The notes: generated from the sequence alone by a model not told the origin. A stretch of 32,000 nucleotides of DNA from Nitrosospira lacus (GCF_000355765.4 NZ_CP021106.3:559137-591136), one strand, 5' to 3'; numbered from the stretch's first letter, positions 10,273 through 32,000 are shown. Program-made: numbers and translations.

Positions 10273-12183
10273 ATGATTTTTTCCGAGAGCTTCGATGTAA
10301 TCGTGGTGGGTGGCGGCCATGCTGGGACCGAGGCGGCGCTTGCGGCCGCACGCATGGGGCAAAAAACGCTGCTGCTTTCGCATAATATCGAAACACTGGG
10401 GCAAATGTCATGCAATCCCTCCATTGGAGGCATCGGCAAGGGGCACCTCGTAAAGGAGGTGGACGCATTGGGCGGCGCAATGGCCGCAGCCGCCGACGAG
10501 GCCGGCATCCAGTTCCGTATCCTTAATTCAAGCAAGGGGCCGGCGGTACGTGCAACACGTGCCCAGGCTGATCGCGTTCTCTATCGCCAGGCGATTCGAC
10601 GACGGCTGGAAAATCAACCCAACCTTTGGCTGTTTCAGCAAGCCGTGGACGATCTCATGCTCGAGGGTGAGCGGATCACCGGAGTGGTTACTCAGCTGGG
10701 AATAAAATTTTCCGCGCGGGCCGTGGTGCTCACCGCCGGCACGTTTCTCGGCGGGTTGGCACACGTCGGCTCATCCAATTTTCAGGCAGGTAGAGCGGGC
10801 GATCCACCGGCTATCAGCCTTGCTATCCGCTTGCGTGAAATGAAGCTGCCAGCCGGGCGGTTAAAGACCGGTACGCCTCCGCGCATAGACGGGCGCACTG
10901 TCGATTATTCGGTCATGACCGAGCAACTCAGCGATGCTCCCATGCCTGTTTTTTCGTTCATGGGCAGCGCCGCACAGCATCCACGCCAATTGCCGTGCTG
11001 GATCACGCACACGAATAGCCGCACGCATGACATTATTCGTGGCGGCCTGGATCGTTCGCCGCTGTTTACAGGAGTTATCGAAGGTGTGGGGCCCCGTTAT
11101 TGCCCTTCCATCGAGGATAAGGTGGTCCGGTTTTCCGCCAAGGAGTCGCATCAGATCTTTCTGGAACCGGAAGGTCTCAGTACCCACGAGATCTATCCTA
11201 ATGGGATATCAACAAGCTTGCCATTCGATCTGCAGATTGAATTGGTGCGTTCTATCAAGGGGATGGAAAAAGCTCACATTACGCGTCCCGGATATGCCAT
11301 CGAATATGACTACTTTGATCCGCGCGGATTGAAAAGCTCGCTTGAAACCAAGATGATCGAGGGACTGTTTTTCGCCGGTCAAATCAATGGTACTACCGGT
11401 TACGAAGAAGCCGCAGCGCAGGGGTTGCTGGCGGGCATCAATGCGGCGCTCAAAACGCTGGACCGGGATGCATGGTGCCCTCGGCGCGATGAAGCTTATC
11501 TTGGGGTTCTGGTGGATGATCTCATCACTCGCGGTGTCACCGAACCTTATCGCATGTTCACCAGCCGTGCCGAATATCGCTTGCAGTTACGTGAAGATAA
11601 TGCGGATTTGCGCCTGACGGAGATGGGGCGCAGGCTCGGTGTAGTGGACGACGCGCGCTGGTCCGTATTCGAAACCAAACGAGAGGCCATTGTTCGCGAG
11701 CAGGGTAGATTGAAGGCCATCTGGCTGGGCCCGAAAACGAATTCAAGTGCGCTGTCAGAAGCAGATATCCTGCGAGTGCTGGGGAAAACGATCGAGCGGG
11801 ATTATTCGCTGAGCGAGCTGCTACGCCGTCCCGGCGTATCCTACGCGAACCTCATGAGCTTGCCGGGCGCGGGTGACGCTGTCGCAGATCCGCTGGTGGC
11901 GGAGCAGGTTGAAATCCAGGCCCGGTATCACGGGTATATCGAGCGCCAGAAGGATGAAGTTGCGCGCACCGCGCACTATGAGGAAATTCGTTTGCCGCAA
12001 GATCTTGATTATGCCACTGTGCGCGGTCTTTCCACCGAGGCGCAGCAAAAATTGAATCAGCACAAGCCGGAAACCGCGGGACAGGCCGCGCGGATTTCCG
12101 GCATCACGCCAGCGACAATTTCGTTACTGCTGGTACACGTGAAGCGTGGTTTTTCCAGTCAGAAAAAAAAGAAAAGCGCGTGA
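10273..12183 (+). CDS. mnmG: tRNA uridine 5-carboxymethylaminomethyl modification enzyme MnmG (GidA)
   Basis: Track ORF 10243..12183. The conserved N-terminus [22 protein letters not shown] (FAD fold) begins at the internal ATG 10273. Confidence 0.97.
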
Positions 12184-12809
12184 ATCTGACGACGCAGCTT
12201 GCTGACGGACTCGCAGCATTGGGAATGGCGCTCCCGGATGAAACCCAGGCTCGCTTGTTGCAATACCTTGCATTAATCCGGAAGTGGAACCGGGTGCATA
12301 ATCTGACGGCGATGCACGAACCTGAAATGATATTGATCCGTCATTTGCTTGACAGCCTTGCGATCCTGTCGCACGTTCCTGGATTCCGCATTGCGGATGT
12401 GGGCAGCGGCGCCGGTTTACCGGGTATTCCCCTGGCTTTGGCACGCCCTGAATGGCATGTGGTATTGCTTGAAAGCAATCATAAGAAAGCGGTATTTCTG
12501 CAACAGGCGCGTATTGAATTGGAGTTGAAGAACGTCGAGATAGTCGCCGAACGGGTTGAAAATTTTCGCCCGGCGAGCGGGTTCGACACGGTGATCTCAC
12601 GCGCTTTTTCGGACTTGGCCGACTTTGTCAAACTGGCAGGGCATCTGGTCAGGGAGGATGGAGGCACGCTCGCTGCGATGAAAGGCGTTTACCCGCACGA
12701 GGAGTTGGCGCAATTGCCGCGTCCGTTTGTTGTTGAGAATGTATTCACGGTTGCGGTTCCCGGACTTGAGGCGGAACGGCATCTGGTGATGATTAAGCAT
12801 GAGGGATAA
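12180..12809 (+). CDS. rsmG: 16S rRNA (guanine527-N7)-methyltransferase RsmG (GidB)
   Basis: 209-aa ORF with a GTG start overlapping the mnmG stop (GTGA). SAM-binding motif [14 protein letters not shown]. Confidence 0.95.
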
Positions 12810-18965: not shown

Positions 18966-19541
18966 ATGTCCTTACACACACTGAAACCTGCCTTGATAGG
19001 TTTAATGCTCACGATCGGCCTGCCCTTTTCCGCGCAGGTACAGGCGCACGGCGGCCTCTCCCTCGCGGACGACATCTGCAAACTCACGATCGGCCCGTAC
19101 ACCATGCACTTTACCGGCTACCAGCCGGAAGCCACGCAGGAGAAGGAATTCTGCGAAGACATTCCGGCCACGGGCCGCACCGTGGTCGCGCTCGATTACA
19201 TCGAAGAAGCGCTGCGCCCCCTGCCCACGGAAGTGCGCATCATCCGCGACACCGGCGCGCAGGCGGGCGCCGAAGGCAACCTGGACGAAATCACCATCCT
19301 GCACATACCGGCCAAGGTTTACCCCAATGGCTCCATCAACTTTGAATACGACTTCATGCAGCCCGGCAAATTCGTCGGTCTCGTGACCGTGGGCGAAAAA
19401 TCGGAATATGTCTCGCGCTTCCCCTTCTCGGTAGGCGAGCCCAAGGGCACCTCGCCCTACCTGATCGTCGCCATCGCGGCCATCATCGGCGCGGCGGCGG
19501 TCTTCCTCCTGCGCGGGCGGCGCAAATCCGCCCCCGCCTGA
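18966..19541 (+). CDS. amoD: AmoD (orf5), PmoD/AmoD-family periplasmic copper protein with C-terminal TM anchor
   Basis: ATG at 18966 (alternative GTG at 18954). MSLHTLKPALIGLMLTIGLPFSAQVQA|HGGLSLADDICKLTIGPYTMHFTGYQPE… aligns by eye with AmoE (HG…C…H..YQP…C.(E/D)IP). C-terminal TM helix. Confidence 0.85.
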   Translation: MSLHTLKPALIGLMLTIGLPFSAQVQAHGGLSLADDICKLTIGPYTMHFTGYQPEATQEKEFCEDIPATGRTVVALDYIEEALRPLPTEVRIIRDTGAQAGAEGNLDEITILHIPAKVYPNGSINFEYDFMQPGKFVGLVTVGEKSEYVSRFPFSVGEPKGTSPYLIVAIAAIIGAAAVFLLRGRRKSAPA

Positions 19542-19611
19542 GCCCGCGGCCAGGCCGGAGGGCTGCCGGTCAAGCCGAACCATACGCAAGCAATACAGTC
19601 AAATAGACACC

Positions 19612-19630
19612 CCGCCCCGCTTTGGGGCGG
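19612..19630 (+). other. GC-rich hairpin between amoD and copC (no T-tract)
   Basis: CCGCCCC-gcttt-GGGGCGG, a 7-bp G/C stem, 22 nt upstream of the copC ATG. It is not followed by a U-run, so it is not a canonical terminator. Confidence 0.3.
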
Positions 19631-19651
19631 CGGACTGAACGAGGAGTCAGA

Positions 19652-20059
19652 ATGGAATCATGGATGGCCTCCGCCCTCAAGCGGATCATGGCGGGCAGCA
19701 TGCTGATCATGGCGATGGCGAGCCTGCACAGCGCGCCCGCCCTGGCGCATGCGATGCTGGTCAAGGCGGAACCGCCGCGCCGCGCGGTGCTCACCGTCAC
19801 ACCGGGGCAGGTACGGCTCTGGTTCAATGAAGAAATCGAAAAGGATTACGCGGCGCTGACCGTACTCAACGCCGGCAAGACCCCTGTCACCGACGCCAAG
19901 CCCACGATTGCGCCTGACGACCCCAGAGCCATCGTTCTGCCCCTGCCGGAACTGGCCGCTGGCAAGTACACGGTAAAGTTCCGGGTATTATCGGTGGACG
20001 GCCACGTGGTTGACTCGTCCTATGACTTTACCGTAAAGAGCAAAGCGCAAGAGAAATGA
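19652..20059 (+). CDS. copC: Periplasmic copper-binding protein CopC
   Basis: ATG at 19652 is preceded by SD GAGGAG (19641-19646). The signal peptide ends ALA|HAMLVKAEP (mature N-terminal His), and the C-terminal …SVDGHVV… motif is typical of the CopC fold. Confidence 0.9.
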   Translation: MESWMASALKRIMAGSMLIMAMASLHSAPALAHAMLVKAEPPRRAVLTVTPGQVRLWFNEEIEKDYAALTVLNAGKTPVTDAKPTIAPDDPRAIVLPLPELAAGKYTVKFRVLSVDGHVVDSSYDFTVKSKAQEK

Positions 20060-22146
20060 TCGAGGTCATCGCGACGCTCCTGCGCTGGTTACAGCTTGCG
20101 TCCAACATGATCCTGGTCGGCAGTTGCGTCTTTCTGGCCATTGCCGGATCGTTCCACTCCCCCTGGGTTACCCGACTGCAGCGCGCCCTGCCGTGGCTGG
20201 GCCTGCTGCTGCTGGTGGGCCTGCTGGGCATCCTCATCACCACCACGGCGCAGGCCACCGGCGTGGCCGAAAACGCCTGGCGGCCGCAGGCCTGGCTCGC
20301 CCTCATGCAAAATACCCGCATGGGACACATCTGGGCGGGGCGCGCGCTCCTGGCCCTCCTGGTCGCCGGCATCGCCCTCTACATCCGCTATGCCCCCGCG
20401 GCGCGCTGGCGCTACCTCCTGTGCGCGACGGTCGCCTCCCTCACACTGGTGGTGGGCTCGCTCGCGAGCCATTCCGCAGCCGAAGAACTCTCGGTGGCCT
20501 CGATCCTGCCCTACGCCCTGCACATCATCCTGGCCAGCGTCTGGTTCGGCGCACTGCCGGCTTTCCTCGTCGTCTGCTTCGCCTGCACCACTCCCGTGCA
20601 TGCGGCCCCCCACCCCGGCATCCAGACCGGTGCCATCACCCGCATCCACGAACTGTTCCAGGCGCGCGAAGAAGCGGTGCAGGCCGGCGCCCAGGCGCTC
20701 AAGCGCTTCTCGGTCATGGCCCTGCCGGTCATGCTGGCCGTCATCGCCACCGGCATCATCATCACCGACCGCATGGTCGACACCACCTACGCCGCCATGG
20801 TATCCACCCAGTACGGCTGGCTGCTCAATGCCAAGATCGGCCTGCTGGCCGTAGTCCTGGTCATCGCCGCGCGTGCGCGCGCCACCTGGCTGCCGCTGCT
20901 CTCCCAGATCTCGCCGCAGAACGCGGACAAGGCCCTGGCGGCGGGACAGCGGCTGCGCAAGTGGGTCAGCGTCGAATTCATCCTCGGACTGGGGATCGTA
21001 CTCCTGGCCACCATCGTGGCCAACACCGTCCCGGCCAAGCACGCCATCATCCAGACCTGGCCCTACTCATTCCGCTTCTCCCTGGCCGCCACCTGGGGAG
21101 AAGAGAGCGTCATGCTGCGCGCCTGGACAGGAATCGCCCTCTTGGTCCTGGCCGCCGGCGCGATCGCCTACGGGCGCGCCCGGCACTGGGACAGGAAGCG
21201 GCGCATCGGCATCCCGGCGCTGGTCGCGGTGCTTGCCTTGGCGGTGGGCCTGCCGCCGCTGGCCATCGATGCCTACCCGGAAACCTATCGCAAGACCCCG
21301 GTGCCGTTCGACACCATCTCCATTGCCAACGGCTCCACCCTGTTCGCCGAGAACTGCGTGGCCTGCCATGGCCTCCAGGGCAAGGGCAACGGCGTGCTGG
21401 CCAAGACCTTTGCCAAGCCCCCGGTGGACATGCTGACCGAACCGCACACCGCCAAGCATACCGCGGGCGACTTCTTCCACTGGCTGACCTTCGGCATTCC
21501 CGATACCGGCATGCCGGTATTTGCCGACAAACTCTCGGAAGAAGAGCGCTGGGACGTGGTCAACTTCCTGCACGCCATGTCGCGCGGCTACCAGGCACGC
21601 CTGATGAGCCCGCGCGTCGTGCCCGACCAGCCCCAGCCGTCCCTGGGCCCGCCCAACTTCTCCTATACCGCGCACGACGGCTCAAGCGGCACCCTCAAAG
21701 ACTTCCGCAACCAGAAGAACGTGCTGCTGGTCCTGTTCTCCTGGCCGGCCTCGCGCGAGCGGCTGGAGCAGCTGAGCACGCTCCATGCCCAGCTTGGGGC
21801 TGCCAGCACGGTGCTGCTGGCGGTGCCGGAGGATGACCCGGATTCGCAGGAAATCGCGCAAATCATCGCCCAGGTTCCCTTCCCGGTGATCACCCAGGGG
21901 GCCCCCGAGATCGTGCGCAGCTACACCCTGTTCCGGCGCACGCTCAACAAGCCCGACCTGCTGGGCGAGGGCACCCTGCCCAGGCACATGGAATTCCTGG
22001 TCGACCGCTTCGGCTACCTGCGCGCGCGCTGGATCCCCGAAGCCGATGGCCCGGGATGGGACAATACCGGCATGCTCATGCAGCAGCTCGCCCAGCTCAA
22101 CCGCGAAAAGGAAATCCTCCCTCCACCCGGCGATCATGTGCATTGA
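20056..22146 (+). CDS. copD: CopD-family inner-membrane copper protein fused to a c-type cytochrome domain and a thioredoxin-fold domain lacking Cys
   Basis: 696-aa ORF whose start overlaps the copC stop (ATGA). The N-terminal ~390 aa are polytopic and hydrophobic (CopD). CVACH heme-c motif at residues 434-438, with a downstream GIPDTGMPVF Met-ligand region. The C-terminal ~170 aa resemble AhpC/TlpA redoxins (KDFRNQKNVLLVLFSWPASRERL…), but the CxxC position reads WPAS. Confidence 0.9.
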   Translation: MIEVIATLLRWLQLASNMILVGSCVFLAIAGSFHSPWVTRLQRALPWLGLLLLVGLLGILITTTAQATGVAENAWRPQAWLALMQNTRMGHIWAGRALLALLVAGIALYIRYAPAARWRYLLCATVASLTLVVGSLASHSAAEELSVASILPYALHIILASVWFGALPAFLVVCFACTTPVHAAPHPGIQTGAITRIHELFQAREEAVQAGAQALKRFSVMALPVMLAVIATGIIITDRMVDTTYAAMVSTQYGWLLNAKIGLLAVVLVIAARARATWLPLLSQISPQNADKALAAGQRLRKWVSVEFILGLGIVLLATIVANTVPAKHAIIQTWPYSFRFSLAATWGEESVMLRAWTGIALLVLAAGAIAYGRARHWDRKRRIGIPALVAVLALAVGLPPLAIDAYPETYRKTPVPFDTISIANGSTLFAENCVACHGLQGKGNGVLAKTFAKPPVDMLTEPHTAKHTAGDFFHWLTFGIPDTGMPVFADKLSEEERWDVVNFLHAMSRGYQARLMSPRVVPDQPQPSLGPPNFSYTAHDGSSGTLKDFRNQKNVLLVLFSWPASRERLEQLSTLHAQLGAASTVLLAVPEDDPDSQEIAQIIAQVPFPVITQGAPEIVRSYTLFRRTLNKPDLLGEGTLPRHMEFLVDRFGYLRARWIPEADGPGWDNTGMLMQQLAQLNREKEILPPPGDHVH

Positions 22147-22243
22147 GGCTCACCAAAGAATATAAACGGCAATATTTTGCTTCCGTAAATCAAGTGTTCC
22201 TGTTTCACAAATTGGTCAACAGTCAGTCAAGGAGAGTTAAAAA

Positions 22244-22744
22244 ATGAACAAATCGATGGCCGCCGTTTTCATTAGCGCTACGTTGGCCGTTTCATCACTT
22301 GCCGGAGCGCATACCGAAGCATATTTCGATTCCATCACTGCGCCGCATGGCGGCCAGATGCGCATGGCGGGACCCTATCACCTGGAGCTTGTCACCCAGC
22401 AAAACGAAATCATGCTCTATGTCACGGATCATGCCGATAGAAAGATCAGCACCAACGGCGGCGTAGGCAAGGCAGCTTTTCAAGTTGGAAAGGCGAAGCC
22501 TAAAATCTCGATCAAGCTGGAGCCAGGAGAGGACAATACACTCAAGGGCGCGGGAGACTTCTCCGTTACTCCGGAAACAGTAATCATCGTATTCATCAAG
22601 CTGCCGGACCAGGAGGCGCAGTCCGCCCGCTTTACGCCGCTCAAGCCAAAGCCGAAGGCGCAATCGAAGAAACCCGCGAAAAAAACCGAAACCGGCGGAG
22701 AATCAGCGGGTGAGCACGGTGGGCACCACCATCACGATCATTGA
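22244..22744 (+). CDS. Secreted protein with predicted N-terminal His and C-terminal His-rich tail (putative periplasmic metal-binding protein)
   Basis: 166-aa ORF with SD AAGGAGAG. The signal peptide ends LAGA|HTEAYFD, followed by an APHGGQ motif, a Lys/Pro-rich linker and the tail GEHGGHHHHDH. Confidence 0.75.
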   Translation: MNKSMAAVFISATLAVSSLAGAHTEAYFDSITAPHGGQMRMAGPYHLELVTQQNEIMLYVTDHADRKISTNGGVGKAAFQVGKAKPKISIKLEPGEDNTLKGAGDFSVTPETVIIVFIKLPDQEAQSARFTPLKPKPKAQSKKPAKKTETGGESAGEHGGHHHHDH

Positions 22745-25147: not shown

Positions 25148-26370
25148 ATGTCTACACCAGTCTCAGCACTCCCCGTTAGGATAACAAAATCCGTTGTGGA
25201 TAGGTTGCACGCTCCAGCAGCAGGGCAAGTTTTTACCCGCGACTCCGAACTAAAAGGTTTTGCGGTCCGCATTACTGCCTCTGGTGCCAAGTCGTTCATT
25301 TTGGAAAAACGTATCGACGGCAAAGTAAAGCGGCTTACTCTTGGTCGCTATCCTGAACTGACGGTCGAGCAAGCCCGAAAAGAAGCGCATAGGCTCTTGG
25401 GACATATCGCTACCGGGCGCAATCCTACTGCCGAGAAAAAGCAAAAAGCGCTGCAAGGCACAACCCTGCAACAAGCCTTCGATGATTTCTTGACCGCCAG
25501 AAAGACCCTTAAACCTCGCACGCTCTATGACTATAAGCGACTAATGAAAATCCCGTTTCCCGATTGGCAAAATAAAGCGCTGGTTGAAATCAACAAAGAA
25601 ATGGTTGCCAAGCGTCACACCAAAGTGGGTACGGAACATGGCGAAGCTTACGCCAATCTATCCATGCGTTTTTGCGCGCATTATTCAATTTCTCTATTGC
25701 ACAGTATGAAGACGGCAGCGGCGATGCCATTTTGCGGGAAAACCCAGTGGTGCGGCTTACGCAGACCCGCGCATGGTATCGGGTAGAACGCCGCCAGACC
25801 GTCATTAAGTCACACCAGGTCGCACCGTGGTATCAAGGGGTCATGCTGCTCAAGCATGACAAAACTTCTCAACAGTCGGGCTTGGTAGCCGATTATCTGC
25901 TCTTCCTGCTGTTTACCGGGCTACGCCGTCAAGAAGCTGCAACTCTAAAATGGTCCGATATCGATTTACACGGCCGGTCATTTACCGTCAGTGACACCAA
26001 GAATCGGGAACCGCTCACATTGCCGCTTACAGATTTTGTTTGCAGCTTATTGGAAAGCCGAAAAGCTGCCGCAGATTCTGAGTATGTTTTTGCCGGAAAC
26101 GGAAAGGCCGGGTATTTGATCGAGCCTCGTCATCAGGTTCAGCAGGTGAGAGATGCGTCCGGCGTTTCCTTTACGCTGCATGATCTACGCCGTAGTTATA
26201 TTACCACTGCCGAAAGTATCGACATCTCGGCTTATGCCTTGAAGCGTCTGGTGAATCATAAAATGAGCAATGACGTGACAGCGGGCTATATCGTTAATGA
26301 TGTGGAACGGCTGCGAGAGCCGATGCAAAGAATAACCAATTATATACTTAGAATCATTAGTCCCGAATAG
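25148..26370 (+). pseudogene. int: P4/CP4-57-type tyrosine integrase split by a frameshift in a T5 run
   Basis: Track ORF 25148..25786 carries the DUF4102-like arm-binding N-terminus (…LKGFAVRITASGAKSFILEKRIDGKVKRLTLGRYPELTVEQARKEA…). ORF 25672..26370 carries the catalytic domain (LLFTGLRRQEA, HDLRRSY, LVNH, AGYI). The frames meet at TTTTT 25669-25673, and one extra T would give the continuous …SMRFLRALFNFSIAQ… of about 407 aa. Confidence 0.85.
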
Positions 26371-26542: not shown

Positions 26543-26675
26543 AAGAGTCATCGGTTGGGGAATCGGGTGACTTGCACGTATGCACGATTGGCGACCGGGA
26601 ATAATATGTACTATATTGAATTTGCAACACTTAAAACCAAGCCAAGGTTCGTCAAACGATAAAAGGTTCGCCGCT

Positions 26676-28805
26676 ATGAGCAAAGACAATAACGTAATCC
26701 GCATAGCACATATCAGCGACTTACATTTTGGTGCTACCAGTTCCGAGGAAGAAACAAGGATTTGGGATAGACTGGTAACTTACTTTACCGACAGTCTGCA
26801 GCCACATTTCGTTCTTGTAACTGGCGATATTGTAAATACCCCAAATAAAGATTTATACACCCGATCCAAGAGGCACTTGGACAGACTAGTTCTAGATGGA
26901 GGGTATCGCGTATGTCCAGGCAATCATGATCGCTTCACCTTAGGTAATAAACTTTTCGCCAGCACCGAGTATGTATTTAGCATAAAGGATGCGCCATTTT
27001 TTGACCAAACGTTTAGTGGCAAGGTATTAGTACCCCATTCTTCATATACCAAGACATTTAGGGAACCGGGCAACGAATGGCGCTGCAGGTTTCTCGGCTG
27101 CGATACCTCAGACAACGACAAAAAAAAATATTTTGCACAAGGAGCTGTAGATGGGGGAACCATCGATGCATTGCGCAAGAGTGCTCTCGATCAGGATGAA
27201 GAAGGAAAAAAGATCGACATCGTTTTTCTCTTACTTCATCACCATTTATTACCAATACCAGCTCTTGAGACAACAGTCACCAATCTGAGTTCGCTGGTGA
27301 ATTTCACGGGTCTACTCAACTCCGGGAGATTACTAAACTCTTTGGCCGAATCTCACGTCAACATCGCATTGCACGGTCACGAACACCATAGCAGCGTGGC
27401 CCGTTTTGGAACCCTTAGCGGTTTACAAGGACAAGTAGTGGTCGTTGCCGCAGGTTCTGCGACAGGCACCGAAACAGGTATAGGATGGGACATCAAGAGA
27501 ACTCGTTTCAACGTCATAGAATTACACCCGGACCGGACCGTAAAACTCAAGAAAATCACATACGACAGCACATCTGAGCGGCTCGTCGACCATGCCGAGG
27601 AGGTGCCGATTGCCTTGCTGAGCGCCGAAGATGTGCGGCGCGCGAGTTTTTTACGCCAATGTGCCAGAGAAAGGAGTACAAGCCTGGATACCCCGAGGAG
27701 CCGAATAAGCAAGTTTTTCGATTTTCGAGACAATCGCGATATCTTGATTACTGAGACTCGCACAGAATGTATCGTTGAAAACACGTATGTGACGCATACT
27801 TGCAATCGTTCCGGTTTCCTGACCGATGCGGCCATGGACATCGAATGGTACACGGGCGCCTCCACCGAACAGTCCAGCGAATTTAAACGGACTAACGACG
27901 GCAACAACAGTTACGAAGCCGTGTTCGCAAACCTCACTGGAGACGACCGTATTCATGGTGTTCGCCGTTTGAGTAAGCAATGGAAATGGAACTGCGGCGC
28001 GGTCTTTTCTGTTGAAGAGATTAAGTCAATCCCTGATTCAGGAGAGTTCAGGAAGGAAAATCGTGAATTTGTGGCCGCGTTTGTCGATATTGATTTGGAA
28101 GAACTCAACATTTTGGTGAAGCTTCCCGAACAATTCGCTCCTGATGTTGATGAAATTTGTGTTTTCACGCAACTAGATAACGATAAAGCACAGCCTCATG
28201 AATCACTAAGAAAGCATGTTAATAAATATGGAAACGGCATCTTTAATTTAAGAATACCGTACCCATACAAAAGATATAAATATATTTTATCATGGCCAGT
28301 TGTAACAAAATTACCCGTCGATAAAAGAGATTCTGCTATAGCAAAAAATATTCGCGATGCAAGCTCACAGATACTGACTGATATAATGCGAATATTGGGC
28401 GAATGGAAAATCCCAGAAACCAGTAATGTTGCGCTTTATTTGCCATTACAGAACAAAATAAAGATTAATGTACTAGAATGCGTGACGCCAAGAAACCTTT
28501 CACCGGAAACGCTTTCCCTCCAAGCCGTTGATTCTTTAGCCAGGGCAGCGTGGTGGGGAAGATTGCGTATTTGGGCGCCTGAAGACTCGGATTCCCAGAT
28601 AACTTCTGTCCATGGCGAGACTCTAATCGCACTGGTTCCTATCGGATTTGGAAGAACCCTTGGCGGCTCCGCCGCTGCTTTGCTCAGAATTGGACTACAG
28701 ACAGCAACTTCGGATATTGAGGAGCAGGCCCAGGCTTTGGAGTCTACCCTTGAACACGTGTCAGCACATGTATTAGAACGATGCTTCAACCGTAATAGAA
28801 CGTAA
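26676..28805 (+). CDS. Calcineurin-like metallophosphoesterase fused to an uncharacterised ~380-aa C-terminal region
   Basis: Likely start is ATG 26676 (the track ORF starts at 26580), giving 709 aa. All five MPE motifs occur in order: ISDLHFG, VTGDIVN, PGNHDRF, LLLHHHLLP, ALHGHEHH. I cannot place the rest of the protein in any family. It is AT-richer than the core genes. Confidence 0.85.
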   Translation: MSKDNNVIRIAHISDLHFGATSSEEETRIWDRLVTYFTDSLQPHFVLVTGDIVNTPNKDLYTRSKRHLDRLVLDGGYRVCPGNHDRFTLGNKLFASTEYVFSIKDAPFFDQTFSGKVLVPHSSYTKTFREPGNEWRCRFLGCDTSDNDKKKYFAQGAVDGGTIDALRKSALDQDEEGKKIDIVFLLLHHHLLPIPALETTVTNLSSLVNFTGLLNSGRLLNSLAESHVNIALHGHEHHSSVARFGTLSGLQGQVVVVAAGSATGTETGIGWDIKRTRFNVIELHPDRTVKLKKITYDSTSERLVDHAEEVPIALLSAEDVRRASFLRQCARERSTSLDTPRSRISKFFDFRDNRDILITETRTECIVENTYVTHTCNRSGFLTDAAMDIEWYTGASTEQSSEFKRTNDGNNSYEAVFANLTGDDRIHGVRRLSKQWKWNCGAVFSVEEIKSIPDSGEFRKENREFVAAFVDIDLEELNILVKLPEQFAPDVDEICVFTQLDNDKAQPHESLRKHVNKYGNGIFNLRIPYPYKRYKYILSWPVVTKLPVDKRDSAIAKNIRDASSQILTDIMRILGEWKIPETSNVALYLPLQNKIKINVLECVTPRNLSPETLSLQAVDSLARAAWWGRLRIWAPEDSDSQITSVHGETLIALVPIGFGRTLGGSAAALLRIGLQTATSDIEEQAQALESTLEHVSAHVLERCFNRNRT

Positions 28806-28874
28806 AAGTGTTAGAATCTTTTTTCCACTTTTGGTGTCCAATTTAAATTAGATTATATTTTGTGAAGGTGCCAT

Positions 28875-29093
28875 ATGAAGATTTTTTACTCAAGAATGAC
28901 CAAAGACGGCATAAGGATTGCTAATATTAGCACCGTTCCCGATAAGACTTCTGTATCAGAAGAGTTTTGCCGCGTGACTCCAGGGAGCGGAATCCCCTTG
29001 TCGACGCTTTCCCCTCGCCATCAGGTTAAACTGATGCGCGGCGAATCTATCGGTTCAGATCAATTGTGGGCTGACGTAGGTTTAAAAGCTTAA
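28875..29093 (+). CDS. Hypothetical 72-aa protein downstream of the MPE gene
   Basis: ATG preceded by AAGGTG, with a promoter-like TTGGTG (28831-28836), 17 nt, TATATT (28854-28859). No recognisable motif. Confidence 0.4.
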   Translation: MKIFYSRMTKDGIRIANISTVPDKTSVSEEFCRVTPGSGIPLSTLSPRHQVKLMRGESIGSDQLWADVGLKA

Positions 29094-29129
29094 GATTTGT
29101 AGCGCGAATTAACGCATAGCTGGATGTCC

Positions 29130-29371
29130 CTTCGCGATTCGAACGGCCGTTTCCTTGTGAGTGGAATTTCGAGGTGGAGCAGTACGATTGCATGAAATGG
29201 ATGGCCTCACGGTTCCCGAAGCGGCCATCGCTGCCGTAGGGAACGCTGAAGAGTTGGGTTTATGCCGCCCGCAAAGGTAACATGGGCGAAGTAGGTAAGG
29301 GGCAGAGGCCGTTGATCGAGTTGGAAATGGAACGGGCACGGGCTTGTCCCATTTGTGAACCCCATCAATAG
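29130..29371 (+). pseudogene. IS3-family transposase OrfA (HTH) remnant with frameshifts
   Basis: Frame from 29161: VEFRGGAVRLHEMDGLTVPEAAIAAVGNAEELG. Frame from 29240: GTLKSWVYAARKGNMGEVGKGQRPLIELEMERARA. Together these resemble IS3/IS911 OrfA (EFK.EAV.L….TV.EAA..…TL..WV…R……E.E..R). At least two frame changes are needed and no orfB follows. Confidence 0.45.
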
Positions 29372-29730
29372 GAAATTTTCTGCGGTGCAAGCTTGAAGTA
29401 TAAACATCAATCCCATCTGTTGCACATTTCATACAGCTTTTTCTAAAAAATATTAATTTTTTTGCTCCGATGTGCCATAGCAATAACGTAAGGCACGAGT
29501 TTAATTATCAAATGCTGGCTCGGCACCTTAACTGCGTGACGCTAGCCCAAGCGCAGAATTGCAAACAACGCCAATTCAAACGCTTATCTGTTATCTTTCC
29601 ACCGGCTCGTGGAAGTATTTAACGCCCCTCCAAGCTTTTAGGTTGTCAATCGTCTGCAATAGGACGTTCCATCTTATTTCCAATTCTTGCATTCTGCCTT
29701 CAACAATTAACAATCCATGGGGACAGAAAC

Positions 29731-30031
29731 ATGAAAGGAAATTTACTTACAACGAAAGAAGCTGCTCTATGCCTGGGCGCCGTCATCCTGATTGTTTAGC
29801 CATACCCATGCATGAAGAATATGTGCGCCTATATAACGCTCATGGGAAGAAAAAGCCGAAGCCTTTCTTCATGAGATTAGCAACCAGCTCACAAGTAAAA
29901 CATTAAGTCTTGGTGCAACCGATGAGGAAATCAACGCCTTTGCCCGCAAGCTTGCAGATCAATTTTTTCGCCTGCAACGCTGGTTCGCGAATTCTGCCGT
30001 TGCAGGCCCGATTCTCTGCCATATCGCTTAG
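29731..30031 (+). pseudogene. AlpA/MerR-type HTH (excisionase-like regulator) pseudogene with a frameshift and three in-frame stops
   Basis: MKGNLLTTKEAALCLG (ATG 29731) stops after 22 codons. The shifted frame continues APSS*LFSHTHA*RICAPI*RSWEEKAEAFLHE…, matching the usual LG.S..TLY…….P.PI….RW.E.D.E.WL pattern except for the TGA, TGA and TAA stops. Confidence 0.4.
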
Positions 30032-30163
30032 ACGAAATATGACGTTACCCCACCAGGGATGAACAAAGCCAGCGGTAAGGTATCTCCATCTGTATGTAAG
30101 CGTGATGACATTACAGCCTTTCTCGGCGACAGTGCTTGTAGCAAGCCCCGGCTATTTCTATTT

Positions 30164-30362
30164 CCTGTAACCGTATCCGATACGGAAGAATCGGCATCTT
30201 TAGCGAGTTCATTGGAAGAGAAGCCTGTAACAGGTACAGGAAAAAGCGGTGGGCAAAGTTCCATAGCGGCATCCGTTACAGACAGACAGGCTCCTGTAAC
30301 GGTAACAGGGAATCTAATCCTTCTTTTCCTGTAACCGTAATGGGAAAATCCGGTCCTGTAAC
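30164..30362. repeat. Iteron-like array of the 8-mer CCTGTAAC (5 perfect direct copies plus inverted variants)
   Basis: Direct copies at 30164, 30224, 30293, 30328 and 30355, each followed by a loose nGTAnnnGG extension. Inverted near-copies at 30233-30240, 30275-30281 and 30302-30309. Confidence 0.75.
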
Positions 30363-30653
30363 TGATACTGGTGCAGGAGTTGCCGACATGGGAATTCTAA
30401 CGCGTCTCGCGGATGAATACTGGTGGCGACAGGTATTGCGTACGGTTCATGTCCCGCACTTTGAACATAGCGCAATCCGCTTTGGATTGGTACATCGCCG
30501 CAAAGGCAAGTACGTCAGTGATGAGACTTTAAAGACGCCAGAAGCGAGACCAGTCAACGCGAGCTAGCGCTAAAATTCGGTCTAACTGAGCGGCAGATCC
30601 GCAACATCCTCGGAGCTAATGGAACGGACAAGATGCAAGCCGACTTGTTCTAG
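30340..30653 (+). pseudogene. Truncated, frameshifted replication-protein-like gene remnant
   Basis: ORF 30340..30567 contains ADEYWWRQVLRTVHVPHFEHSAIRFGLVHRRKGKYVSDETL. From memory this resembles a conserved N-terminal block of P2 GpA-type replication endonucleases. After its stop, another frame continues SQRELALKFGLTERQIRNILG…* (to 30653). The total is far shorter than a functional Rep. Confidence 0.3.
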
Positions 30654-30816
30654 GATGGTGTAATTCTCTATTTTATTCAGCGCTGCTGCAATAGAGAAGT
30701 TATTATACCGACGCCAAAAATCAGAAAATTGTGCATAAATAAAATATGATGCCCATATAAAAATATCGGGATGGAGAAATTCCTCCATGTATTTATATCA
30801 ACAACGGAGATATTTG

Positions 30817-32000
30817 AATGCGACTAACAAAGGCACGGATACAAAAATATCGCAGCATACGCGACACAGGATTCTTCGATGTTGAGTCCGATAAGACAAT
30901 ATTGGTGGGGCCAAACGAAGCTGGGAAGACTGCGGTGCTTCGGGCACTTCAGCAGTTGAATCCGCCCGATGACGTGCGAGCGTTCGACATCTTACGTGAT
31001 TACCCGCGCTCCGAGTACAACGATATAACCCTGGGGAAAGTGGATCCGGCGAAAGTAACTATTGTGGAAGGACATTTTACTCTTGAGCCAGAAGATCAGG
31101 CCTTACTTGCAGATGATTTTAAGGGCTGTACTTATATTCGTGGAAGAACTCTTGATAACCGGCGATGGCACCGGCTCATCGGAGCGCCCGAAATTCATAA
31201 ATATGGGGATATCGATAAAGATCTAGCACGACTTTGCGCCCACGTCGATTCTAGCGTGTCATCGGTAGAGGGCATCGATTTGCCGCAGACAAAGCCCAGT
31301 TCGACTCTAGAGGTGATAACGAATAATTGGACTAGCACGACACTGATTAGCGGTGAACTCGCAAAGAAACTGAAGCAATGGCTCTCAAGTATTTTTCAGT
31401 ATATAGAGGAAGGCAACTCAAAAGAGGAGGCGCGTCATCAGCGACTTCTCGATGCATGTATCGTATCTGAAGCAAGACAGAATACTATTGCGATTCTAGA
31501 CGATCGTGTGCCCGTCTTCGTTTTGTTCAGTAATTATTTCCGTGTGCGCCCTGTCATCCATTTGGAGCATCTCGCATCTCGTCTTGAAACGGGAGTTATG
31601 GATGACGAACAATACGACTATGGCAATCAGTGTTTGTTAAAGCTTTTAGGATTCACTGCTCGTGAATTGTCGAATCTTGGAAAGGCGCCCGAACCCCCCG
31701 CCCACGATCCGGCGGCTCTGCTAGCTTACCGAGATCAGCTTGATAAACGGTCATATCAGCTGAATGGGGCTGAAGTTCGCCTTACGAATGACATACGAGC
31801 TGTTTGGCTACCAGACACAAGTCGTGGGGAGGCAGACCGCCTACGTGTGGTTGCCGACGGTCAATATCTAAAAGTTGTCGTCGAAGACTCCTTGGGAGTA
31901 AATATCGAATTAGACCAGCGATCTGAGGGCTTCCAGTGGCTTGTCTCGTTCTTTGTAGTCTTTTTTGCGGAAGCCGTTGACAAACATGAGAATGCGGTCC
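30817..32000 (+). CDS. ABC/OLD-like (AAA_15/AAA_21-type) ATPase, 5' partial (continues beyond the window)
   Basis: ATG 30817 after ACGGAGA. MRLTKARIQKYRSIRDTGFFDVESDKTILVGPNEAGKTAVLRAL (Walker A) … a long helical insert … LDQRSEGFQWLVSFFVVFFAE (ABC-signature-like SxGxQ). Open to the last base, and missing from the ORF track because there is no stop. Confidence 0.85.

Follow-up and report, generated by a model that had tools for sequence, protein, structure and literature searches.

What does an intact pair of genes do when it lies in a genomic island whose mobility genes have decayed? We asked this of a 32,000-nt stretch of the Nitrosospira lacus genome (GCF_000355765.4 NZ_CP021106.3:559137-591136; hereafter the window), in which a gene for a 709-aa metallophosphoesterase is followed on the same strand by an open reading frame (ORF) for a 72-aa micro-protein. 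We found that the larger product combines a calcineurin-like phosphoesterase domain, a beta-sandwich and a predicted GAF-fold domain in a single polypeptide, and that the pair is most likely an undescribed variant of nucleotide-degrading anti-phage systems. To the more specific reading, a two-gene sensor-effector conflict module that degrades nucleotides and has the micro-protein as its regulatory subunit, we give about an even chance. The conflict-module interpretation is supported by kinship of the catalytic domain with the DS9_1 and DS8 families, by conserved metal ligands, by a sensor-type C-terminus, by the rarity and patchiness of the family, by fusions to TIR and caspase-like domains, by an exclusive conserved partner gene, and by the island and defence neighbours at this locus.

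We first consider the N-terminal domain. The preliminary description of this DNA had reported an ORF of 709 codons with five metallophosphoesterase motifs in order, and both the ORF and the order (ISDLHFG, VTGDIVN, PGNHDRF, LLLHHHLLP and ALHGHEHH, all within the first 240 residues) are confirmed in the translation; a Nitrosospira lacus protein recorded as 'metallophosphoesterase family protein' has exactly this sequence (100% identity). The domain shows the motifs of the calcineurin-like superfamily (DxH, GD, GNH[D/E], H and GHxH) and scores above the gathering threshold of Pfam PF00149 (Metallophos; residues 8-238, E 7e-12, 46.5 bits against a cutoff of 21.5). Across 27 homologues, the metal ligands D15, H17, D51, N83, H84, H188-190, H233 and H235 are invariant or at least 90% conserved. 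Because these residues are conserved family-wide, the phosphoesterase is probably catalytically active, and the earlier suggestion of catalytic competence is strengthened at the level of sequence.

When the 709-aa protein was scanned with 18,950 NCBIfam models, the top match was to DS9_1, 'anti-phage phosphoesterase' (NF053862, E 4e-19), spanning the whole catalytic domain and only that domain (profile positions 195-476 of 486). The second-best was to DS8, 'anti-phage protein' (NF053861, E 8e-10), restricted to residues 12-85. Housekeeping models were far weaker, namely acc_ester (8e-5), LpxG (2e-3) and SbcD (TIGR00619, 2e-2). As judged from these profiles, the phosphoesterase domain is related to DS-9A and DS-8 and is a member of neither; furthermore, PADLOC-DB v2 returned no significant full-length system match for the protein.

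What, then, is attached to the enzyme? The preliminary description could place the remaining ~380 aa in no family, which still holds for sequence models, since Pfam, NCBIfam and PADLOC contain none for the C-terminal module and homologues are labelled in Pfam with Metallophos only, but no longer holds for folds. An AlphaFold2 (AF2) model of residues 305-709, built from a 26-homologue alignment (mean predicted local distance difference test score, pLDDT, 90.4; predicted template modelling score, pTM, 0.88), comprises a linker helix, a beta-sandwich of ~200 residues and an alpha/beta domain of ~160 residues. In Foldseek searches against the PDB, the beta-sandwich resembles the N-terminal domain of M1/M61 aminopeptidases (3kd4, 3cia, 8j9c and ERAP1/2, E 3e-6 to 1e-3), and the last domain of the same fragment matched phytochrome GAF modules. 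A separate AF2 model of residues 545-709 alone (pLDDT 88, pTM 0.85) had GAF domains as all 50 of its best 50 PDB matches, with template modelling (TM) scores of 0.39-0.61, mostly ~0.5, and probabilities mostly of 0.9-1.0. These matches include cAMP-bound Lcd1, sensor-kinase GAFs, free methionine-sulfoxide reductase and the GAFs of PDE6C and PDE10A, so that GAFs binding cyclic AMP (cAMP) and cyclic GMP (cGMP) are among the best. A search of viral folds (BFVD), by contrast, gave low TM scores and no informative match. At the level of the model, the GAF fold assignment is unambiguous, and the vague GAF resemblance that had been noticed at the extreme C-terminus proves right as regards the fold. 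The family conserves a signature in this domain (LYxP, AWWG, GE, PxR and R(I/V)G), whose conserved Y, WW, E, P(R) and R are suggestive of a ligand pocket without being diagnostic of one.

The next question is whether the small downstream ORF is a gene and, if so, a partner of the enzyme. Its product consists of an N-terminal strand (MKIFYSR), a middle in which P, S, T, A and G abound and, at the C-terminus, the motif G-I-P-L-S-T-L-S-P-x-x-Q-x-x-L, and it has no match in Pfam, NCBIfam or PADLOC. At least 10 independent loci have a homologue in the corresponding place, adjoining enzymes only 29-40% identical to the 709-aa protein; the homologues come from a Burkholderiales metagenome-assembled genome (MAG), Bradyrhizobium, Comamonadaceae, Rubrivivax and the locus of a caspase-fused member. 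They share an MK[IV][FL]S N-terminal strand and the C-terminal motif G-x-P-x-S-x-L-P-x-x-x-Q-x-x-L, are likewise rich in P, S, T, A and G, and vary in charge from one to another. In a leave-one-out test with hidden Markov models (HMMs), every omitted member ranked first among the 7844 background ORFs of all fetched loci. Between the small ORFs of two related loci (L006 and L009) there are 14 synonymous and 5 non-synonymous differences (ratio of non-synonymous to synonymous rates, dN/dS, 0.097), and the ORF is under purifying selection. Upon reciprocal profile search of 5.8 billion proteins, only ~20 micro-protein clusters were recovered, of 65-93 aa, all unannotated and none with a Pfam domain; the new clusters that we inspected (3/3) each follow a gene for a phosphoesterase / beta-sandwich / GAF protein at a distance of 9-66 nt. 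By position, by leave-one-out HMM, by dN/dS and by reciprocal search, what had been listed earlier as joint cargo is a genuine conserved partner gene. Additionally, its start abuts or overlaps the stop codon of the enzyme gene in several other loci, which suggests co-translation.

We also considered a single family for all the small ORFs found downstream of these enzymes and rejected it, as the HMM recovers the seed group only and a second group is unrelated by hhalign. This second family, with the consensus xIR[YF]PAPPGGLARS..., lies directly 3' of the enzyme gene in three beta-/proteobacterial MAGs. Regarding the relation of the small ORF to the GAF domain, two GAF-less homologues (L022 and L040) have no small ORF, and another homologue (L018) has a GAF-like C-terminus and no small ORF.

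The protein had been called an orphan, which overstated the case, as it belongs to a small family. A word-indexed search gave ~33 near-full-length relatives with 27-63% identity, mostly from soil and freshwater metagenomes, and a profile of the beta-sandwich-GAF region found 272 clusters (E <=1e-3) among 1.84 billion cluster representatives, which makes the family very rare. Since the phosphoesterase domain is present in all 75 of the 75 matches of at least 600 aa, the three-domain architecture appears obligatory at that length; certain members of ~550 aa are without the GAF domain. Genome matches are patchy over phyla, being found in Burkholderiales, Nitrosospira, Bradyrhizobium and Methylobacter (Proteobacteria), in Planctomycetota, in Acidobacteriota and in Binatota. 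Some members carry added domains: one cluster (P0174) has an N-terminal TIR domain, three (P0167, P0187 and P0192) have a caspase-like N-terminal domain with a His/Cys dyad (YVGHG, LDCCYAG), and in one member the phosphoesterase domain is duplicated. The gene for the caspase-fused P0167 (L038:1421-4411) is followed by the conserved micro-protein (L038:4389-4586), and a gene of 117 aa lies immediately ahead of it. In an Isosphaeraceae MAG, the homologue (L020:9959-12354) consists of two overlapping ORFs of 216 and 599 aa, probably frameshifted, with no evident small ORF downstream.

When the neighbourhoods of ~20 homologous loci were compared all against all, the sole conserved neighbour was the small same-strand ORF directly downstream of the enzyme. 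A few copies lie among genes of defence or mobility. The Bradyrhizobium copy (L034) has an integrase and an SLFN/AlbA_2 gene on one side, and on the other a resolvase and a type I restriction-modification (R-M) system with SIR2. In this strain, Bradyrhizobium sp. SSUT77, the SIR2_2 gene lies inside the R-M operon itself (HsdR, SIR2_2, HsdS, HsdM; L034:9351-16041), 3 kb from the enzyme pair. In a Rubrivivax MAG the copy abuts a Zorya-type system (L010:12461-18214; ZorA E 5e-202, ZorB E 1e-102, and ZorD), in which ZorA and ZorB were assigned by ORF size and a ZorD/DpdE-like SNF2 protein was confirmed at L010:12461-15124. The contig of the TIR fusion also encodes a patatin-TPR-S protein, another TIR protein, a PP2C and a kinase.

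How might such a pair work? The module would most likely be anti-phage and act by abortive infection. The N-terminal metallophosphoesterase, of the calcineurin 'conflict effector' type, would hydrolyse phosphoanhydride or phosphodiester bonds of free nucleotides, candidate substrates being (deoxy)nucleoside di- and triphosphates ((d)NDP/(d)NTP), nicotinamide adenine dinucleotide (NAD+) and a cyclic or linear signalling nucleotide. The beta-sandwich and GAF module would keep the enzyme inactive until it senses a cue arising from infection, for which a small nucleotide-like ligand is the most plausible candidate given the GAF fold. The co-expressed 72-aa protein, predicted to be largely disordered, could serve as a stoichiometric regulatory subunit, either an inhibitor (antitoxin-like) or a bait, docking via its N-terminal strand and the G-x-P-x-S-x-L-P motif.

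This proposal has precedents. DS-8 and DS-9 are E. coli anti-phage systems validated by experiment, and mutants in the catalytic residues of their metallophosphatases lose defence (PMC13092281). DS-9 is PUA-Cal-HAD of E. coli ECOR28, where ligand sensing by a fused domain leads to nucleotide depletion by Calcineurin-CE; the complex forms a filament, HAD turns dNTP into dNDP and Calcineurin-CE turns dNDP into dNMP, the enzyme cleaves NAD+ in vitro as well, and Calcineurin-CE effectors with varied sensors are an established paradigm (PMC12871103). Like DS-9, the Nitrosospira pair joins a calcineurin-type phosphoesterase to a small-molecule sensor-type domain in one polypeptide and has one partner gene, and both are proposed to stay silent until a cue arrives. 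In contrast, the domain order is reversed, with the enzyme N-terminal and the sensor C-terminal in our protein, the sensor is a beta-sandwich and GAF instead of a PUA-like domain, and the partner is a 72-aa disordered micro-protein instead of a HAD phosphatase. Furthermore, hexamer or filament formation and hydrolysis of dNDP or NAD+ are known for DS-9, whereas for the present pair we infer the activity of the enzyme and its substrate, the trigger, what the micro-protein does and a phage phenotype from sequence and models. With DS-8 the pair shares an N-terminal metallophosphatase effector and a large C-terminal regulatory region in a single polypeptide; the region is NACHT in DS-8, whereas here it is the beta-sandwich and GAF, with a micro-protein partner in addition.

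Several observations weigh against a nucleotide-degrading conflict module. The protein misses the equivalog cutoffs of its two best families widely (DS9_1, 68.7 against 420 bits; DS8, 37.1 against 790 bits), and in PADLOC-DB v2 it has a weak N-terminal match to a candidate system only (PDC-S60, E 3e-8; residues 8-106 against profile positions 1-108 of 1027). It has no PUA domain, the enzyme beginning at residue 1, and no Pfam match to NACHT or a P-loop NTPase, and the adjacent 72-aa protein has no HAD match. Pfam GAF, GAF_2 and GAF_3 gave no match in the 709-aa protein at E up to 0.1, and we infer ligand binding by the GAF domain from its modelled fold; GAF-regulated phosphodiesterases also serve as ordinary signalling enzymes. 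At roughly half of the loci, the small ORF that follows the enzyme gene is kept in position and has no detectable homology to the 72-aa protein. The genomic settings point the same way. Only ~4 of the ~20 homologous loci adjoin recognisable defence or mobile-element genes, most genomic copies being isolated two-gene cassettes among genes such as QueF, an ABC transporter, Pirin, an amidase and ArsC, and no homologue turned up when plasmid and phage collections were searched with the protein by tBLASTn. In the window the pair lies in an island, and many of the other loci are housekeeping in character. A check for HAD genes, as in DS-9, gave two HAD matches among 130 neighbours within 6 kb of homologues, and the ten closest mid-sized neighbours, when scanned singly, were housekeeping proteins, none of them HAD.

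Could the pair instead be a mobile signalling enzyme without an immune role, that is, a GAF-regulated class-III-type phosphodiesterase of second messengers (cAMP, cGMP or other), comparable to CpdA, GpdQ or the GAF-PDEs of eukaryotes, with the micro-protein as a small modulatory subunit? The presence of cAMP-bound Lcd1, PDE6C and PDE10A among the best GAF fold matches is consistent with this, as is the source annotation 'CpdA' carried by many homologues. The best sequence matches among solved structures, all weak and covering motifs I and II only, are headed by GpdQ (5e-7) and include the cyclic-nucleotide phosphodiesterase-like Lmo2642 (1.5e-4), but the GpdQ match is limited to the first 84 residues (6-84) and the catalytic domain as a whole is nearer to phosphoesterases of proven anti-phage function than to any of the housekeeping models. 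CpdA, Rv0805 and GpdQ belong to the same superfamily and have the same motif set, whereas they are stand-alone proteins of ~250-320 aa, widespread, and without a beta-sandwich, GAF or micro-protein. Most loci lie among housekeeping or regulatory genes, with EAL, PAS and response-regulator genes at certain of them, yet no conserved cyclase or signalling partner emerged from the neighbourhoods compared, and in this genome the pair occupies a low-GC decayed island beside an OLD nuclease. A family so extremely rare and phylogenetically patchy, with TIR and caspase-like fusions, also argues against ordinary signalling, and we regard this explanation, the main rival, as unlikely. Somewhat less likely still, in our judgement, is a toxin-antitoxin-like addiction module, in which a phosphoesterase toxin (nucleotide-depleting or nuclease) and a labile small antitoxin would stabilise the island. 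Here a large enzyme is paired with a small, fast-diverging, disorder-prone partner encoded next to it. In type II systems a labile small antitoxin neutralises the neighbouring toxin and as a rule autoregulates via a DNA-binding domain; the toxin-first order and the small protein, in which Pfam and NCBIfam detect no DNA-binding domain, are atypical of them. The pair is intact while the integrase and replication genes are decayed, and it recurs in varied contexts as an isolated, mobile cassette, both of which suit addiction, whereas the beta-sandwich and GAF elaboration would be left unexplained and homologues on catalogued plasmids are lacking. The distinction from an anti-phage module is itself not sharp, since many toxin-antitoxin modules act as abortive-infection systems.

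The preliminary description had further pointed to an ABC-type ATPase gene 1.7 kb downstream as an echo of SbcCD, in which case the enzyme would be an Mre11/SbcD-type nuclease working with that ATPase. We consider this very improbable, as it is largely refuted by the lack of co-occurrence: an ATPase is a conserved neighbour in none of the ~20 homologous loci, decayed DNA separates the one downstream from the pair, and that one proves to be a self-sufficient OLD-family ATPase-TOPRIM nuclease. The weak matches that speak for a nuclease are those to Thermotoga SbcD/Mre11 (6e-6, first ~85 residues) and to TIGR00619 (14.6 bits against a cutoff of 77.65, E 0.02), and they are confined to motifs I and II, which are superfamily-wide; where Mre11 has its capping and DNA-binding domains, this protein has the beta-sandwich and GAF.

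If the pair is a nucleotide-depleting module, how the micro-protein might control it is suggested by a functional analogy. PDE6 is a GAF-regulated phosphodiesterase of HD-type catalytic fold with a small (~70-90 aa), largely disordered inhibitory gamma subunit. Both systems have a GAF fold and a phosphodiesterase-type enzyme in one chain and a small disordered partner protein, whereas the catalytic folds are unrelated (calcineurin-like in our protein), the GAF is single and C-terminal in the Nitrosospira enzyme, and there is no sequence similarity. By this analogy, the GAF domain might read a nucleotide-derived alarm and the disordered micro-protein might be a releasable inhibitor of a nucleotide-depleting enzyme, as PDE6-gamma is for PDE6; we offer this as a doubtful extension of the proposal. 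Were it true, it would be a bacterial counterpart of GAF/gamma-subunit phosphodiesterase control recruited to immunity, and its sensor chassis would be shared by the relatives fused to TIR or caspase-like domains.

Calcineurin-type conflict effectors have only recently been shown to be protective, the binding of an infection-derived nucleotide by a fused sensor leading to the collapse of nucleotide pools (DS-9 / PUA-Cal-HAD, and DS-8). If our preferred interpretation is true, the pair would add to the same effector class a different sensor (the GAF fold) and a new kind of partner (a conserved micro-protein of ~70 residues), would broaden the known input logic of nucleotide-depletion immunity, and would provide a compact two-gene system in which to ask which small molecule reports infection. 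Should it turn out to act in signalling, it would still be the first GAF-controlled phosphodiesterase with a calcineurin fold. In addition, its micro-protein is a clear instance of a functional small product known to annotation pipelines only as 'hypothetical', and the locus appears to illustrate how defence-type cargo can outlast the mobile element that carried it, here in an ammonia-oxidising bacterium of soil and lake. We found no paper on a metallophosphoesterase-GAF defence module, and the architecture may already be listed in Nicastro et al. 2023, the work that reportedly defines Calcineurin-CE.

The coordinates of the pair, its domains, the signals around it and the neighbouring genes are given below.

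Table 1. Features of the gene pair and its surroundings. Positions count from the first letter of the window unless a locus handle (L) is given.
Feature	Position	Strand	Details
P4-type tyrosine integrase pseudogene	25148..26370	+	frameshift-split; left part of low-GC island
Promoter-like TTGGCG-18-TATATT, 5' of phosphoesterase gene	26588..26617	+	9/12 consensus positions
Phosphoesterase / beta-sandwich / GAF gene, 709 aa	26676..28805 (incl. stop codon)	+	ATG 26676, MSKDNN...
Calcineurin-like metallophosphoesterase domain, predicted effector	26676..27575	+	residues ~1-300, five intact motifs
Linker helix	27624..27668	+	residues ~317-331; invariant R321, R327; AF2 helix 13-27 of fragment
Beta-sandwich domain	27702..28298	+	residues ~343-541; invariant G380, R459, E464, P530, Y536, W540
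GAF-fold domain, predicted allosteric or sensor	28323..28799	+	residues ~550-708
Promoter-like string before small ORF	TTGGTG 28831-28836, TATATT 28854-28859	+	17-nt spacer
GAAGGTG, Shine-Dalgarno-like, before small ORF	28864-28870	+	
Partner micro-protein ORF, 72 aa	28875..29093	+	begins 69 nt past stop codon of 709-aa gene
P2-type replication gene A (GPA) remnant, 75-aa ORF	30340..30567	+	Phage_GPA E 1e-5, below cutoff, 47 residues
OLD-family ATPase-TOPRIM nuclease gene, 5' part	30818..32000, past window end	+	673 aa, complete on L001:8701-10722
Second small-ORF family (other loci)	L007:12175-12378; L013:12134-12355; L014 ~12150-12383		

Regarding the start of the enzyme gene, a 741-aa version (ORF 26580-28805, plus strand) was rejected, as homologues and the NCBI record start at the methionine equivalent to 26676; this start is also favoured over 26580 because the upstream promoter-like site falls within the extension of the longer ORF. 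An AAAGG lies ~10 nt 5' of the ATG. The small ORF was found with a Shine-Dalgarno-like GAAGGTG of its own and at the distance from the enzyme gene that had been described. As for the internal promoter proposed before it, its two hexamers and spacer are present in the sequence but lack statistical support, scoring under the promoter-scan threshold. In this region, promoter-like sites, including the one upstream of the enzyme gene, were not above shuffled expectation, and the terminator scan likewise gave no excess over it.

What kind of element brought the pair here? The GC content is 0.42-0.49 over 26-32 kb against 0.53-0.60 for most of the window, in agreement with the earlier remark that the gene is AT-richer than the core genes. 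The integrase said to lie directly upstream is indeed adjacent, but a frameshift near 25670-25790 divides it into two ORFs, one of 212 aa with Arm-DNA-bind_3 and one of 232 aa with Phage_integrase. Because independent metagenome contigs of the locus (L001 and L002) show the same split, this is a genuine pseudogene and not a sequencing error. Around the GPA remnant, the DNA from 29100 to 30800 is otherwise non-coding or decayed. The OLD-family protein was identified by PADLOC (Old, E 6e-26, plus GajA and AriA) and Pfam (AAA_15, AAA_21 and OLD-like_TOPRIM), and is a second, independent defence-type gene of the decayed island and not a partner of the pair. Since the pair and the OLD nuclease are intact, the integrase is frameshifted and GPA is only a remnant, the pair appears to be cargo that outlived the mobility genes of a decayed P4/P2-like island. 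A similar situation is found in the OLD / Gabija-type cargo of P2/P4-like islands, likewise intact defence cargo near a P4-type integrase and P2 replication remnants, a type of site at which hotspots of satellites and prophages harbour defence genes; the phosphoesterase pair, however, is unrelated to OLD in sequence, and the two do not co-occur at other loci. Scans of the window for tRNA genes and Rfam families found nothing, and no att-like direct repeats bound the island within the 9 kb available, its right end lying beyond the window.

Just upstream of the GPA remnant, at ~30161-30339 (L001:8044-8222), we observe three copies of the 15-mer TTTCCTGTAACCGTA, two exact and one at 80%, and in the same stretch its inverted partner ACAGGTACAGGAAAA. 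They may be what is left of an origin or of operator repeats belonging to the element. Further to the left, the region 19000-22150 is GC-rich (0.64-0.68 against ~0.55 elsewhere) and holds a 696-aa ORF (20056-22146) with many transmembrane-looking segments and a CxxCH cytochrome-c motif. It is followed by a 166-aa ORF (22244-22744) with no Pfam match, a signal-peptide-like N-terminus and a histidine-rich tail (HGGHHHHDH), the product of which may be a periplasmic metal-binding protein linked to the gene upstream.

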